DNA from: Pseudomonadota bacterium
GTDB taxonomy: Bacteria; Pseudomonadota; Gammaproteobacteria; Acidiferrobacterales; UBA6901
Assembly (NCBI GenBank): GCA_021819085.1
Contig: JAKASJ010000011.1
Coordinates: 13,604 to 77,603 of the forward strand
Direction: 5' to 3'
DNA: 64,000 nucleotides
Under the pieces are notes generated by a model. The model made no database searches, was not told the origin of the DNA, and saw only the letters and a program-made list of their open reading frames with translations. Position numbers and translations under genes: made by a program. The first letter of the stretch is position 1; each line of letters begins with the position of its first letter. This document shows, piece by piece, positions 1,160 to 37,376 of the stretch.

Positions 1160-1929
1160 CGCCCATCCTGCATTGTGGCCGGGGCCGGTGCCGGGGTCAG
1201 GTCCGCGTATCCCGTGCGTTCGAGTTCGAGCGCCAGGGCGCGATCTCCCGACTTGACGATGCGACCACCAACGAGCACGTGCACCACATCAGGTACGACA
1301 TAGTCGAGAAGACGCTGATAATGGGTTATCAGAAGAAACGCCCGGTCCGGACTGCGCAGCGCATTGACACCTGCCGCCACGACCTGCAGGGCGTCGATGT
1401 CTAGCCCGGAATCCGTCTCGTCCAGGATCGCGAGGTACGGCGCGAGCACCGCCATCTGCAGGATCTCGCGGCGCTTTTTCTCTCCGCCGGAAAAGCTTTC
1501 GTTGACGGAACGGTATAGCAGCTCCTCTTTCATCTCCACGAGCTGCATGCGGTCCTTGACCAGGGCAAGGAAATCCATCGCATCGAGCTCCTGCTCGCCG
1601 CGGGATTTGCGCACCGCGTTGAGCGCGGCTTTCAGCAGATAGATATTGCTGACCCCGGGGATCTCCACGGGGTACTGGAACGCGAGAAACACGCCTGCGC
1701 GGGCGCGCCCCTCGGGTGGCATTTGCAGCAGATCGACATCCCGGTATTTCACTGTCCCCCGAGTCACCTGATACCGGTCACGGCCGGCAAGCACGTTCGC
1801 GAGCGTGCTTTTTCCGGAGCCGTTCGGGCCCATGATGGCATGCACCTCGCCGGCATTGATCTGCAGGTCGATGCCCCGCAGTATTTCCTTGCCGTCACAA
1901 CTCGCGTGCAAATCCGTGATTGTCAGCAT
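1156..1929 (-). CDS. sufC: Fe-S cluster assembly ATPase SufC
   Basis: ORF 1156..2196 trimmed to the internal ATG at aa 90 (MLTITDLHASCDGKEILRGIDL). Walker A GPNGSGKST, ABC signature FSGGEKKR, Walker B ILDETDSGLD. Lies between sufB and sufD. Confidence 0.93.
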   Translation of the reverse strand: MLTITDLHASCDGKEILRGIDLQINAGEVHAIMGPNGSGKSTLANVLAGRDRYQVTRGTVKYRDVDLLQMPPEGRARAGVFLAFQYPVEIPGVSNIYLLKAALNAVRKSRGEQELDAMDFLALVKDRMQLVEMKEELLYRSVNESFSGGEKKRREILQMAVLAPYLAILDETDSGLDIDALQVVAAGVNALRSPDRAFLLITHYQRLLDYVVPDVVHVLVGGRIVKSGDRALALELERTGYADLTPAPAPATMQDGR

Positions 1930-1969
1930 TCTGTTCTCCTGTGCACCGCACCGTTGGGCATCGGCCACG

Positions 1970-3418
<1,449 letters not shown>

Positions 3419-3516
3419 GGCAACCTCTGCACTCACTCTGACCGGCATGACGGCCCGGACAGATCGTGACCTGCTACCGCGGTCGGGAAAAATCCCGACT
3501 TTATCGGTCGGGAAAT

Positions 3517-3552
3517 AGAATACGAAACCATACTATAATAGTCAACTATTAT
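3517..3552 (-). promoter_or_regulatory. Putative sigma70 promoter of sufBCD overlapped by a perfect AT-rich inverted repeat (operator candidate)
   Basis: Minus strand reads TTGACT (3545-3540), 17 nt, TATTCT (3522-3517), 70-100 nt upstream of sufB. The palindrome ATAATAGT-CA-ACTATTAT (3535-3552, 8+2+8) covers the -35 element. It is an AT island in otherwise GC-rich DNA. Confidence 0.4.
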
Positions 3553-33668: not shown

Positions 33669-34286
33669 TCAGCCGGATAAATCGCGCGCGAGTGCTGCGC
33701 GCACCTCGTCCGGCAGCTTCTCGACGGAATGGGAGTAGGCGGGATGTTCGATGCCCATGGCTAGTGCCGCACCGGATTTCACGGCCTGCACCATGGCGGG
33801 ATCGAGCTCGAAGCGCAGAAAATGAACGGATGAGGTCTTTTCCGATGTGGCACGTTCCAGATCCTCGTCGGCGATCGCCCAGACACGATCAAATCCCGCC
33901 ACGCGCACCCAGACCCTGCGTTCGACGCCGATCATGCTTGCCAGCGCCGCCTGGCGCTCGTCTTCTCGCGCGTACTCGATCATGAAGGTGGCTTTCCAGT
34001 TGCGGCCGTCCGGAATTAGCGGATTATAGGTTGCAATCTCTTCCTCGATGCCCTGTGCCTCGAAAATCCGCTCGGCACGCAACATCTCCTGCACCTGGTA
34101 ACGCATCGTGAGCGCGTCCTCGAAGTAAAGGGTCGCGTGCGGTCCGATCGGGACCCTGCGATTGAGTTTGTGCGCCATCACGGTGGCGCGAAAGTCGTTG
34201 CGCACCCGGTCGTACTGCTCCAAGGACAACAGACCCTCGCGGGTGAGTTTCTGCGTAGCAATGGTATCGGCGTCAGTCACGGGCAC
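33669..34286 (-). CDS. DUF3501-like protein of unknown function
   Basis: 205 aa, soluble, GTG start 3 nt after the stop of the upstream EncFtn-like gene. The DUF3501 assignment is from memory of that family's size and its association with rubrerythrin / CCG Fe-S genes, and was not verified by search. Confidence 0.6.
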   Translation of the reverse strand: MPVTDADTIATQKLTREGLLSLEQYDRVRNDFRATVMAHKLNRRVPIGPHATLYFEDALTMRYQVQEMLRAERIFEAQGIEEEIATYNPLIPDGRNWKATFMIEYAREDERQAALASMIGVERRVWVRVAGFDRVWAIADEDLERATSEKTSSVHFLRFELDPAMVQAVKSGAALAMGIEHPAYSHSVEKLPDEVRAALARDLSG

Positions 34287-34289
34287 ACC

Positions 34290-34589
34290 CTACGACTTGT
34301 GCTTCCCTTCCAGGGCAACGATAGGCTTGTCGGTGAACACATAATCGCGCAGCTCCTTGTCAAAAGCCGGATCGTGACGACGGATCCACTCCAGGATCAT
34401 GGCCGCATGCTCCTTTTCCTCGTCACGATTGTGCGCGAGGATCGCGCGCAACTCCTTGTCCTTGCACGCGTCAACGCGCTGATTGTACCAATCAGCTGCT
34501 TCCAGTTCCTCCATCAGGGAAATGATCGCGCGATGCATGTCGCGCGTTTCCTCGCGCAACTCGGTTTCGTGATAGCCCTCGCTTGCCAT
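34290..34589 (-). CDS. EncFtn-type (encapsulated-ferritin-like) mini-ferritin without a cargo-loading tail
   Basis: 99 aa. HRAIISLMEELEAADWYNQRVDACKDKELRAILAHNRDEEKEHAAMILEWIRRHD closely matches my recollection of the Rhodospirillum rubrum EncFtn core, including the ExxE/W and EEKEH metal-site residues. It ends ...FTDKPIVALEGKHKS with no Gly/Ser linker and no LxIGSLK-type targeting peptide. Confidence 0.75.
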   Translation of the reverse strand: MASEGYHETELREETRDMHRAIISLMEELEAADWYNQRVDACKDKELRAILAHNRDEEKEHAAMILEWIRRHDPAFDKELRDYVFTDKPIVALEGKHKS

Positions 34590-34666
34590 ATCATCTCCTC
34601 AGCTATTGAAGCCAATAGTTCACGCCGGTCATGCGGGCTGGCTGCTGCCTCGGACAAATGCCGCGC

Positions 34667-36013
34667 TCAGATCCCGTATGCTGCGCGCAGCAGAGACAGC
34701 GGGTGCTCCGGCGCCTTTCCGGTGGCGAGACCGTTTTCGATCTGATGCCCCGCCATGGGGCAATCGCTACTGAAGTGATCCGCCGCCGCCTGCCGCACGC
34801 GCTCGACCACCGGTCCTGCGATCTTCATCGAGCTTTCGTGGAACTCGCTCTTGACCGCATAGGTTCCATCGTGTCCGGAACAGCGCTCGATCGCATCGAC
34901 CTGCGTCTGCGGCACCAGCTGCAGCAGATCGCGCGTCTTCATGCCGATGTTCTGCACCCGCAGATGACAGGCGACATGGTAGGAGATCCTGCCGAGCGGC
35001 TGCTTGAAATCGGTACGCAGCTTGCCGTCCTTGTGACGCAGCATCAGGTACTCGAAGGGATCGAAAATGGCAGCGCGCACCTTGGCGACGTCCGGATCCT
35101 CGGGAAACATCAGCGGCAGTTCCTGCTTAAACATCAACACACAGGAAGGCACCGGTGCGACGATGTCCCAGCCTTCGTCCACCAGGCGTGCCAATAGCGG
35201 AATATTGACCTCTTTGGCACGTTCCACTGCACCCAGATCACCGAGTTCAAGCTTCGGCATCCCGCAGCAGCGCTCCTTCTCGGCAACGGTGACCGGGATG
35301 CCGTTATGGCGAAACACCGCGACAAGATCATCATTCAGCCGTGGCTCATTGTAATTGCCGTAGCAGGTGGCGAACAGCGCCACGCGCCCGCGTGTGGCGG
35401 TAGTGGGCTCGGCCTGTGCCGCTACGGCGCTGTCATCGTGCCACCGCCTGAGGAAAGTATCGCTGTGATACGCCGGTACGGGAGCACGGGGATGGACATG
35501 CAGAGTCTTGTCGAGCACCTTGCGGAACAGACCGTTTCGATTCGCGGCGTTGACGAACTGCACGACCACGGGGATGCCTGCCAGACGTCCGACCGTATCG
35601 GTGCTTGTCAGGATGCGATCCCGCACTCGGGTATCACCCTTGCGGAACTTTACCGCCTTGGCGCGCAGCATCAGGTGCGGAAAGTCCAGGTTCCAGGGAT
35701 GCGGCGGCACGTAGGGGCACTTGGTCATGTAGCACATGTCGCACAGATAGCAGTGGTCCGCAATCTGCCAGAACACGGACTTCGGGACACTATCGAGTTC
35801 CATCGTCTCGGAGGCATCGATGGCGTCAAACAGCGTCGGGAATGCCTGACACAGACTGAAGCAGCGGCGGCAACCATGGCAGATGTCGAAGACCCGCTCC
35901 ATCTCCTTGATCAGGGCGCCTTCGTCGTAGAACTGGGGATTCTTCCAATCCAGCGGATGGCGTACCGGGGCTTCAAGATTCCCTTCGCGGCCACCCTGAG
36001 TGGTTACAGCCAT
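34667..36013 (-). CDS. (Fe-S)-binding oxidoreductase with HdrD/GlpC-like architecture (2x[4Fe-4S] + two CCG-type domains)
   Basis: 448 aa. Ferredoxin motifs CHGCRRCFSLC and CYLCDMCYMTKCP. Cys-rich CCG-type segments ATCYGNY...ERCCGMP and PSCVLM...CSGHDG...DCPMAG. Confidence 0.85.
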   Translation of the reverse strand: MAVTTQGGREGNLEAPVRHPLDWKNPQFYDEGALIKEMERVFDICHGCRRCFSLCQAFPTLFDAIDASETMELDSVPKSVFWQIADHCYLCDMCYMTKCPYVPPHPWNLDFPHLMLRAKAVKFRKGDTRVRDRILTSTDTVGRLAGIPVVVQFVNAANRNGLFRKVLDKTLHVHPRAPVPAYHSDTFLRRWHDDSAVAAQAEPTTATRGRVALFATCYGNYNEPRLNDDLVAVFRHNGIPVTVAEKERCCGMPKLELGDLGAVERAKEVNIPLLARLVDEGWDIVAPVPSCVLMFKQELPLMFPEDPDVAKVRAAIFDPFEYLMLRHKDGKLRTDFKQPLGRISYHVACHLRVQNIGMKTRDLLQLVPQTQVDAIERCSGHDGTYAVKSEFHESSMKIAGPVVERVRQAAADHFSSDCPMAGHQIENGLATGKAPEHPLSLLRAAYGI

Positions 36014-36141
36014 AATCTGCCCTGCCCATGGTTGAACTGGCTCATGTAACGCATCGCGGCGCGTCGCCCGATCCCGGCGCCTGACAGCCCAGCCGACAAC
36101 CGCGCCTGGGGACGGGGAAACCCGCCCCGCGGCGCTATTGA

Positions 36142-36564
36142 TTACTTGCCGAGACTGTCCAGAGCTTTCTGAAAACGGTTGGCATGAGAGCGCTCGGCTT
36201 TGGCGAGGGTCTCGAACCAGTCCGCAATCTCGGTAAAGCCTTCCTCGCGTGCGGTTTTGGCCATGCCGGGATACATGTCGGTGTACTCATGGGTCTCGCC
36301 AGCGATGGCCGATTTCAGATTGTCGCCGGTGCTTCCGATCGGCAGGCCGGTGGCCGGATCACCCACAGCCTCCATGTACTCGAGATGCCCGTGCGCATGG
36401 CCGGTTTCCCCTTCGGCGGTGGAGCGGAATACGGCGGAGACATCGTTGAATCCTTCGACGTCTGCCTTGGAGGCGAAATACAGGTAGCGGCGGTTGGCTT
36501 GGGATTCGCCGGCGAAGGCGTACTTCAGATTCTCGTGGGTCTTGCTGCCCTTCAGACTTTTCAT
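36142..36564 (-). CDS. Rubrerythrin-family diiron protein lacking the rubredoxin domain
   Basis: 140 aa. Diiron ligand motifs [40 protein letters not shown]. The whole protein contains no cysteine. Confidence 0.88.
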
Positions 36565-36593: not shown

Positions 36594-36630
36594 AAATAAG
36601 CGAATATGCTTATTTAGAATAAGTCTAAAT
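36594..36630. promoter_or_regulatory. Two adjacent AT-rich inverted repeats 30-66 nt upstream of the rubrerythrin start (operator candidates)
   Basis: AAATAAGC-gaatat-GCTTATTT (36594-36615, 8+6+8 perfect) and ATTTAGA-ataag-TCTAAAT (36612-36630, 7+5+7 perfect). The half-site AATAAG recurs three times. A TTGACA hexamer (minus strand, 36651-36646) lies just upstream. Confidence 0.45.
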
Positions 36631-37376
36631 CTATCCCACCAACCCTGTCAACGATCATACTAGGGTTGAAACACCTGACGAACCATGATCTCAGTCAAAT
36701 CCTGGTGACGAGCAACCGCCCGGGGGCCAAACGGAAGCTCAACCCCTGGACCGGACCGCAATCATTGCGGTATCCGCGGCAGCGCGGACCCGCCGCACTG
36801 CCGGGATTCTGCGCTGGGGAAACGCCGGTTCGTGCGATCGGGCGTGCGCGGCCATCCGGGCGAGACGCCCTCGCCGGGTGGCCGTTTGGCAATGACGGCC
36901 TGACGCCGGTCCCGGAGTTGCGGAACCCCGATGATGGATCCGACCGCGGTTCGGTGGCTGACGGGTTCATCGGGTCGATCAGGTTCCACATGCTGCGGCT
37001 TGTCCGCGGCTTTCTATCACAATCCTGAGCACGATCTGCCCGCGATCACCGCAGGAAGGCCAGACTCGCGCCGCCACGCACCGCCAGTGCGTTCCCGTTC
37101 GGCCGGGTATGGTATTTCCGCATTCCGGAACCGGACTGGATCGCCGGGCCGCCGAACCGACACAGGTAGAATAAATGCCGGCGGACGGCACCTGCTCCGG
37201 CCGCAGACCGCATATGATGATATTGCTGTCCAATCCGGAAACCGGCCCCAGACAACCTGCCGTGATGCACGAAATGAAATAAAGGATTGGCGAACCGGAT
37301 TATCTCATCTAATATTGATTAAAAGACATCGATATCTCGCCCCGACAACATCTTTTCAATTATTGATCAAAGGGAT

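Follow-up and report, generated by a model that had tools for sequence, protein, structure and literature searches.

The DNA analysed here is a 64-kb stretch (64,000 nucleotides [nt]; hereafter the window) of contig JAKASJ010000011.1, from a gammaproteobacterial genome assembly. On its minus strand lie four co-directional open reading frames (ORFs) that encode, in transcriptional order, a rubrerythrin (RBR), a CCG-type Fe-S oxidoreductase (RFO), an EncFtn-like mini-ferritin (s-FLP), and a DUF3501 protein. The cluster is flanked by parE/parC on one side and by pilB on the other, with intergenic spacers, 5' to 3', of 128 nt (rbr-rfo), 77 nt (rfo-s-FLP), and 3 nt (s-FLP-DUF3501). An earlier reading of the window (the original prediction) had described these ORFs, their coordinates, and their spacing between parE and pilB, all of which we find as claimed, and profile searches uphold its four family assignments (PF02915, PF02754, PF22277, and PF12007). 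In the public annotation of an identical contig, DUF3501 begins at its second GTG (position 34280), which gives a protein of 203 aa and a spacer of 9 nt. On the basis of these sequences, we identify the locus with high confidence as a member of the aerobic-type rubrerythrin system, in a four-gene variant with a non-encapsulated s-FLP. Its features are collected in Table 1.

Table 1. Genes, promoter elements, and other features of the rubrerythrin locus, in positions of the window.
Feature	Position	Strand	Remarks
rbr (rubrerythrin)	36142..36564	-	140 aa; PF02915
rfo (CCG Fe-S oxidoreductase, RFO)	34667..36013	-	448 aa; PF02754
s-FLP (EncFtn-like, NE0167 type)	34290..34589	-	99 aa; PF22277
DUF3501 gene	33669..34286	-	205 aa; PF12007; alternative start 34280
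-35 hexamer TTGACA	36646..36651	-	consensus scan; predicted rbr operon promoter
-10 hexamer TAGACT	36622..36627	-	within left arm of operator palindrome; ~58 nt upstream of rbr ATG
Putative operator palindrome TTTAGACTTATTCTAAA, 17 bp	36613..36629	.	ICE/Irr-box-like; consensus TTTAGAA-N3-TTCTAAA
Inverted repeat AATAAGC-N6-GCTTATT	36595..36614	-	directly after operator; probable 5'-untranslated region hairpin
rbr-rfo spacer	36014..36141	-	GC-rich, weak structure, no T-run terminator

The "aerobic-type" lineage of rubrerythrins, which is without a rubredoxin domain, was named in 2016 by Cardenas, Quatrini, and Holmes (PMC5114695). Its members co-localize and co-occur with DUF3501 and with a COG0247 Fe-S oxidoreductase, named RFO, and the three are present together in 185 of 4461 genomes (PMC5114695). 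The same study hypothesized that RFO makes up for the missing rubredoxin domain as electron donor, and a 2025 preprint on the structures of the Burkholderia pseudomallei rubrerythrin restates this electron-partner hypothesis (PMC12154734). The trio has been termed the "aerobic-type rubrerythrin system" in protist mitochondria too (PMC7050145), and later work, including work on Acidihalobacter, treats it as a functional module. The locus in the window has the genetic features of this system: a rubredoxin-less rubrerythrin of ~140 aa, a co-localized DUF3501, and a co-localized RFO, with families and gene order unchanged. It differs from the published trio in the extra s-FLP gene between RFO and DUF3501. 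This EncFtn-like gene goes unmentioned in the trio papers that we found, including that of 2016, which contains 0 occurrences of "encapsul" and does not describe the operator discussed below. The original prediction had taken the combination of families to be without experimental description, which holds for RFO and DUF3501. The trio, however, was already catalogued in 2016, and electron flow from the CCG protein to rubrerythrin is not a new idea either, having been proposed in that same study (PMC5114695). What is new in the present analysis is the recurrent association with s-FLP and the occurrence of an operator resembling the iron control element (ICE) outside the alpha-proteobacteria.

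The rubrerythrin matches its Pfam profile across residues 11 to 134 of 140 (E = 1.7e-30), with ExxH diiron motifs located at EGETGH and KAERSH. As originally predicted, it has no rubredoxin domain and not a single cysteine. It aligns with the B. pseudomallei rubrerythrin structures 9ONM, 4DI0, and 8FUH at ~85% identity (E = 2e-77) and with sulerythrin (1J30) at E = 6e-53. The Burkholderia operon has the same composition of RBR, Fe-S oxidoreductase, and DUF as the locus studied here, but it was described with three genes only, and its structures show metal binding, with no activity or partner data. The binding is promiscuous for Fe, Mn, and Co (PMC12154734). Sulerythrin, from Sulfolobus tokodaii, is like RBR a rubredoxin-less, domain-swapped diiron four-helix bundle, and peroxidase activity has been reported for it (PMC12154734). 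It is, however, archaeal and more remote in sequence.

For RFO, the original prediction of two CxxCxxCxxxC(P) ferredoxin motifs and two CCG domains proved correct in part. The first ferredoxin motif (C45/48/51/55) has the predicted form, whereas the second (C88/91/94/99) reads CxxCxxCxxxxCP. Of the CCG repeats, the first is canonical (C217/C249-C250/C291) and is the only one that passes Pfam (8e-13), while the second is a degenerate CSG version with three invariant cysteines (C349/C378/C418), though the predicted fold matches that of double-CCG proteins. Fifteen cysteines are invariant across 70 RFO sequences. A search of the PDB with the RFO sequence profile found no relative. An AlphaFold (AF2) model built with database homologues has a pLDDT of 75 overall and of 80 to 95 in the C-terminal half. 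Foldseek relates this model to LutA (TM 0.77 on the target), HdrB, and EtfD, with mycobacterial EtfD aligning across ~400 columns, and the predicted fold of the C-terminal half agrees with the double-CCG proteins LutA and HdrB. The modelled architecture of RFO appears to be of the HdrD type.

As in the HdrD/GlpC/LutA/EtfD family, two ferredoxin-type [4Fe-4S] motifs in RFO precede what is, by its predicted fold, a double CCG module. In characterized relatives (Hdr, GlpC, EtfD), the CCG module carries out thiol/disulfide or quinone chemistry. RFO differs from this family in falling below every equivalog cutoff, in having no glpAB, lutBC, hdrE, or ETF genes close by, in lacking a membrane domain, and in the degeneracy of its second CCG repeat. 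Its best NCBIfam matches are GlpC models, both under their cutoffs (NF008369, 238.7 versus 278 bits; TIGR03379, 166.9 versus 279.9 bits). We ruled out an identification of RFO as GlpC on account of these scores and of its neighbors, which are rbr, s-FLP, and DUF3501 rather than glpA/glpB.

The last protein of the cluster matches DUF3501 over its full length (245.6 bits, 5e-73), and its AF2 model has a pLDDT of 93. The sole fold relative in the PDB is 3FJV (TM 0.87 to 0.92), a B. pseudomallei member of the family that shares 52% identity and the same fold; all other matches of the PDB search are noise, with TM below 0.3. Because 3FJV is itself of unknown function, the fold yields no functional clue. 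In two Nitrosomonas metagenome-assembled genomes (MAGs), RFO and DUF3501 are encoded as one ORF of 668 to 671 aa (L090, 4567-6582; L091, 4609-6615) and are joined by a low-complexity linker of ~30 residues. Such a fusion was already noted by Cardenas et al. (PMC5114695) and is borne out here. This natural fusion argues that RFO and DUF3501 are physical partners in a complex, and for the same reason DUF3501, which had been cast as an accessory or chaperone component, is better called a partner of RFO. The s-FLP gene in the window occupies exactly the RFO|DUF3501 junction; in the Nitrosomonas loci examined, no s-FLP was found within 6 kb of the rbr cluster.

To survey the gene neighborhoods, we anchored a scan on a DUF3501 alignment (the closer 10-sequence subset of a 45-sequence set) and searched 80 loci from different species genomes, with DUF3501 identities of 57 to 76%, by tblastn with the four window proteins. 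RBR, RFO, and DUF3501 are collinear and on the same strand in 66 of these 80 loci, and most of the remaining 14 are interrupted by contig ends. True variants are RBR-DUF3501 without RFO (L018 and L020) and DUF3501 alone (L084). The gene order is kept across gamma-, beta-, and alpha-proteobacterial loci. Conserved co-occurrence, on which the original prediction had been made to depend, therefore holds for the three-gene core, while the EncFtn-like gene is facultative (~16/80). The four-gene order is also present in a different genomic context, beside xseB-ispA-dxs (L004), and this difference in flanks indicates that the four-gene cluster moves as a unit.

The mini-ferritin matches the EncFtn-like family at 138.5 bits (6e-41). 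Among proteins of known structure, the nearest to it is NE0167 of Nitrosomonas europaea (95 aa; PDB 3K6C; E = 1e-44, ~80% identity over residues 1 to 91), an unpublished structural-genomics entry that is a decamer in the crystal. NE0167 is of the same length class as the window protein, has the same ferroxidase residues, and likewise lacks a targeting peptide; no function or context has been described for it. A 2024 review uses the name "s-FLPs" for such short proteins without a targeting peptide, which were originally seen as non-encapsulated (PMC11202242), and the window protein fits this NE0167-like class in length (~95 to 100 aa), in its EncFtn fold, and in having no targeting peptide. Its residues E28/E58/H61 align with the ferroxidase center E32/E62/H65 of Rhodospirillum rubrum EncFtn, and E27/E30/W34 align with the entry site E31/E34/W38, so that the ferroxidase site is intact.

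EncFtn itself (R. rubrum Rru_A0973, PDB 5DA5) belongs to the same two-helix family, with the same Glu/Glu/His center and Glu/Glu/Trp entry site, but it has a disordered tail of 10 to 40 aa that ends in a targeting peptide, and its gene lies next to the shell gene; s-FLP has neither. The targeting-peptide consensus at the end of such C-terminal extensions is L(F)-x-V(I)-x-x-L(I) (PMC11202242). The s-FLP protein ends 8 to 12 residues past the fold, and tails of its homologues read ..KPIAHD, ..KPIVALEGKHKS, and ..KDYTDIGHHDH. Across 19 cluster-linked homologues of 95 to 101 aa, the tails are short (4 to 12 residues) and variable, with no targeting-peptide consensus. No Linocin/encapsulin Pfam domain was found in any annotated neighborhood examined, the window included.

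Among the 80 surveyed clusters, s-FLP is present in 16 (~20%), lying between RFO and DUF3501 in 14 and just downstream of DUF3501 in the other 2. Its carriers include Chromatiaceae, symbionts of lucinid clams, and cultured Thioalkalivibrio strains such as ALJ21 and AKL19 (L088 and L089). A metagenome scan anchored on s-FLP gave 45 informative loci at ≥77% identity, of which 11 are rbr clusters, with s-FLP at the RFO|DUF3501 position in 10, and 34 (~75%) are stand-alone. No family occurs in more than 3 of the 34 stand-alone loci, and this lack of a recurrent neighbor excludes a conserved encapsulin partner for this s-FLP clade. In the survey, s-FLP identities range from 71 to 94%, compared with 57 to 76% for DUF3501, and copies within and outside the cluster show no systematic sequence difference. 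The presence of s-FLP is patchy on the RFO tree. In a pair of sister symbiont genomes, the gene is intact in one (L055, 5626-5901) and a decayed remnant in the other (L046, 5760-6000); the remnant keeps both gene ends, but ~150 nt that include the metal-binding core are deleted and the start codon is gone. Judged from this distribution, s-FLP appears to be an autonomous, widespread gene that some lineages keep in the operon and others lose.

Several loci of these scans have arrangements of their own. In a Thiomargarita MAG (L039, 6001-6935), DUF3501 is followed by s-FLP, and the 6 kb upstream contain neither RBR nor RFO, so that the pair stands apart from the other genes of the system. In L008 (6332-6547; also L009 and L010), a stand-alone s-FLP of 95 aa, 85% identical to that of the window, is followed by a conserved 71-aa ORF that has no Pfam match, in a setting of trehalose/glycogen genes. 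Strain variants of the L004-type locus (L005 and L007, 1058-2302) carry a Transposase_mut (PF00872) gene between dxs and ispA, near the four-gene cluster.

Upstream of rbr, where the original prediction had placed a palindrome-bearing promoter region, we found a sigma-70-like promoter with two palindromes. The promoter, TTGACA-18-TAGACT (36651-36622), matches the consensus at 10 of 12 positions. The first palindrome, TTTAGACTTATTCTAAA, overlaps the -10 element and occurs a single time in the window, against 0.01 occurrences expected by chance. This predicted site agrees at 13 of 14 specified positions with the ICE consensus TTTAGAA-N3-TTCTAAA, which is an alpha-proteobacterial consensus. Both the ICE consensus of the regulator Irr and its repressor geometry have been described (PMC1698941, PMC3413700).

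To determine the extent of this motif, we examined the 63 loci with enough sequence upstream of rbr. Of these, 34, in gamma- and beta-proteobacteria, carry an exact TTAGA-N5-TCTAA (commonly TTTAGAAT-N-ATTCTAAA) no more than 250 nt upstream of rbr. The loci together span 796 kb and contain 39 exact sites; 37 of these sit upstream of rbr, and the other two, in L046 and L055, precede a di-haem cytochrome c peroxidase (ccp) gene. As in the window, the left arm doubles as the -10 element in 12 other loci, which have a match to TTGACA at 4 or more of 6 positions 16 to 19 nt from the operator; the remaining operator sites lie just downstream of a promoter. Both placements correspond to repressor geometries.

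The second palindrome, directly after the operator, is predicted to fold at -8.6 kcal/mol (z = -1.9). Hairpins of locus-specific sequence are found at the same place in other loci, with z < -1.5 in 12 of 35, compared with 2 of 35 upstream control segments. Loci with such a hairpin include L014, L021, L044, L053, L072, L073, L081, L088, and L089. It could act as a stabilizer of the mRNA 5' end or form part of the operator.

A survey of 2006 reported ICE and Irr in alpha-proteobacteria only, where "minimal" regulons consist of ccp or a rubrerythrin-like gene (PMC1698941), and the literature that we found naming both Irr and rubrerythrin concerns alpha-proteobacteria only. In contrast to that regulon (Rudolph 2006; Rodionov 2006, PMC1698941), the motif described here occurs in gamma- and beta-proteobacteria. 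In the sister genomes L046 and L055, a gene for a Fur-family protein that has an HHHH motif and no cysteine lies between ccp and rbr, with an exact site upstream of ccp and a site with one mismatch upstream of rbr. The L055 regulator scores best against the NCBIfam models IrrA (116 bits) and Irr (112 bits), which is below the respective cutoffs of 150 and 170, and PerR comes next. The L055 grouping (1707-3544) of an Irr-like gene with ccp and its exact site recurs in L096 (1197-2845). That gamma-proteobacterial symbionts and MAGs pair an Irr-like gene with a ccp gene preceded by an ICE-like site suggests that a small peroxide/iron regulon exists beyond the alpha-proteobacteria. Irr-like proteins are plentiful in gamma-proteobacterial sulfur oxidizers, with 3667 matches at E ≤ 1e-10. 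We also considered blr7895, a classic Irr target, as a precedent and rejected it, as it encodes an MbfA-type exporter and not an aerobic-type rubrerythrin.

Taken together, the overall explanation that we regard as best, and as reasonably probable, is an aerobic-type rubrerythrin system joined by s-FLP, acting as an RFO-fed peroxidase under Irr/PerR-like control. We hold its individual steps with moderate to low confidence. Electrons from a thiol or quinol would enter RFO at its CCG module and be relayed via the two [4Fe-4S] clusters. RFO-bound DUF3501 would dock the domain-swapped rubrerythrin dimer, at whose diiron site H2O2 would be reduced to water. Of the possible routes, electron flow from the CCG Fe-S protein to the rubredoxin-less rubrerythrin seems the most plausible. 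The s-FLP would be an autonomous decameric ferroxidase placed in the operon by some lineages, and its co-expression would take away Fe(II) and H2O2, both Fenton reactants, together; a role as Fe(II) scavenger is plausible. One sigma-70 promoter would drive all four genes and would be repressed by an Irr/PerR-like protein of the Fur family, encoded elsewhere in the genome. The system, with its need for more than ten Fe atoms, would therefore be produced only once iron status and/or peroxide relieves the repressor.

Several observations weigh against this explanation. No biochemistry or genetics has been reported for RFO, DUF3501, or s-FLP from any organism in the literature searched, and RFO has neither a membrane anchor nor a flavin domain. 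As s-FLP is absent from ~80% of clusters and is mostly stand-alone, any role that it has in the system must be dispensable. The operator was found on 0 of 64 stand-alone s-FLP genes, so s-FLP would come under ICE-like control only when inside the operon. No Fur/Irr gene was found in the window, either by tblastn (with E. coli Fur and the L055 regulator) or with a hidden Markov model (HMM). A slight rise of Pelagibacter rbr when iron was limiting makes the direction of control uncertain. Finally, co-transcription is deduced from gene spacing only, and the 128-nt spacer between rbr and rfo could attenuate transcription.

One alternative is that s-FLP is an integral fourth subunit, with its decameric ring docked on RFO/DUF3501, where it would either act as a metallochaperone, loading iron specifically into a rubrerythrin that accepts several metals, or provide a second diiron site for reduction by RFO. 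Such a role would fit the insertion of s-FLP exactly at the junction that is fused in Nitrosomonas, with spacers of 3 to 9 nt, and the retention of this position in 14/16 genome and 10/11 metagenome clusters with s-FLP. The strong conservation of s-FLP relative to DUF3501 and the promiscuous Fe, Mn, and Co binding of the B. pseudomallei rubrerythrin are also in its favor. Yet some 80% of clusters do without s-FLP, a sister genome is losing the gene, 34 of 45 informative close-homologue loci are stand-alone in unrelated contexts, and the in-cluster copies are not systematically different in sequence from the others; we therefore think a fourth subunit unlikely. Two linked readings build on the same ground. 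By the first, EncFtn-fold proteins also serve, independently of encapsulins, as a part dedicated to the aerobic rubrerythrin peroxidase, with the s-FLP ring docking at the RFO-DUF3501 junction as an iron-loading chaperone or second RFO-reduced diiron site; by the second, the Irr/ICE circuit runs in gamma- and beta-proteobacterial sulfur and iron oxidizers as a compact peroxide/iron regulon of rbr-rfo-(sFLP)-DUF3501 plus ccp. That both should be true is doubtful, if a little less so. It is also conceivable that the module serves mainly in iron homeostasis, by analogy to Bfd-Bfr, with RBR and s-FLP oxidizing and holding iron and an RFO/DUF3501 reductase releasing it. Control of the ICE/Irr type is characteristic of genes for iron storage or iron use, for example bfr and mbfA, the Pelagibacter rubrerythrin is annotated as a putative ferroxidase, and EncFtn-fold proteins are ferroxidases. 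However, a storage cavity is absent from both the 140-aa domain-swapped dimer and the open decameric ring, sulerythrin has peroxidase activity, and in beta-proteobacteria oxidative or UV stress induces rubrerythrin. The same operator moreover stands ahead of the ccp gene, which indicates a peroxide regulon, and a mainly iron-homeostatic function accordingly strikes us as quite improbable.

Two further alternatives appear very improbable, each to about the same degree. The 99-aa protein might be genuine encapsulin cargo, with the shell encoded elsewhere and its place in the operon merely co-regulating storage with peroxide defense. It marginally passes TIGR04535, "encapsulin-associated ferritin-like protein" (127 versus 125 bits), and the 3K6C decamer is the same as that of encapsulated ferritins; encapsulation of s-FLPs has been called possible in principle (PMC11202242). 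This has to be set against the absence of a C-terminal targeting peptide on its short, variable tails and of an adjoining shell gene in the window, in the 16 + 11 cluster loci, and in the 34 stand-alone loci, where no neighbor family recurs. Alternatively, there may be no operon, with rbr monocistronic and the downstream genes, or s-FLP alone, transcribed separately, s-FLP being a neutral hitchhiker. The GC-rich, structured 128-nt spacer behind rbr could be read in this way, as could the patchiness of s-FLP and its decay in L046. The predicted fold of that spacer (-65.8 kcal/mol, z = -2.2 versus shuffles) only weakly beats shuffled sequences, however, and for this reason we do not claim its structure as a feature. 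A consensus scan of the cluster found no intrinsic terminator or promoter between the four genes, the other spacers measure only 77 and 3 to 9 nt, and the gene order is conserved in gamma-, beta-, and alpha-proteobacterial loci.

The aerobic-type rubrerythrin system has a wide distribution that takes in proteobacteria, Aquificae, Crenarchaeota, and protist mitochondria. The locus sharpens, rather than answers, the question of what reduces a rubredoxin-less rubrerythrin and what DUF3501 does. From the fusion of RFO to DUF3501, a complex of the two is to be expected. The s-FLP variant provides a natural comparison of systems with and without the gene, in the sister pair L055/L046 and in cultured Thioalkalivibrio strains. 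The conserved ICE-like operator offers a concrete regulatory hypothesis and a handle on the conditions under which the operon is expressed. For the orphan "s-FLP" class (PDB 3K6C), the cluster is a first recurrent functional context.

Among other features of the region, Rfam gave no match at E ≤ 1 in the cluster and none at gathering thresholds in the whole window, which also contains no tRNAs. A promoter-like site, CTGACG-17-TATAAT (33672-33644), overlaps the DUF3501 stop codon, and a weak terminator-like hairpin lies ahead of parE (33572-33553). Given these two elements, parE may be transcribed from a promoter of its own, and transcripts of the rbr operon may likewise extend into parE-parC. 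On the other side of the cluster, the rbr-pilB intergenic region measures 812 nt, compared with 446 nt in the closest relative. The GC-rich middle of this region (36700-37280, up to 66% GC) has no counterpart in related loci, no repeat elsewhere in the window, no Rfam match, and no conserved ORF. Conservation in this intergenic region is limited to the 95 nt closest to pilB.

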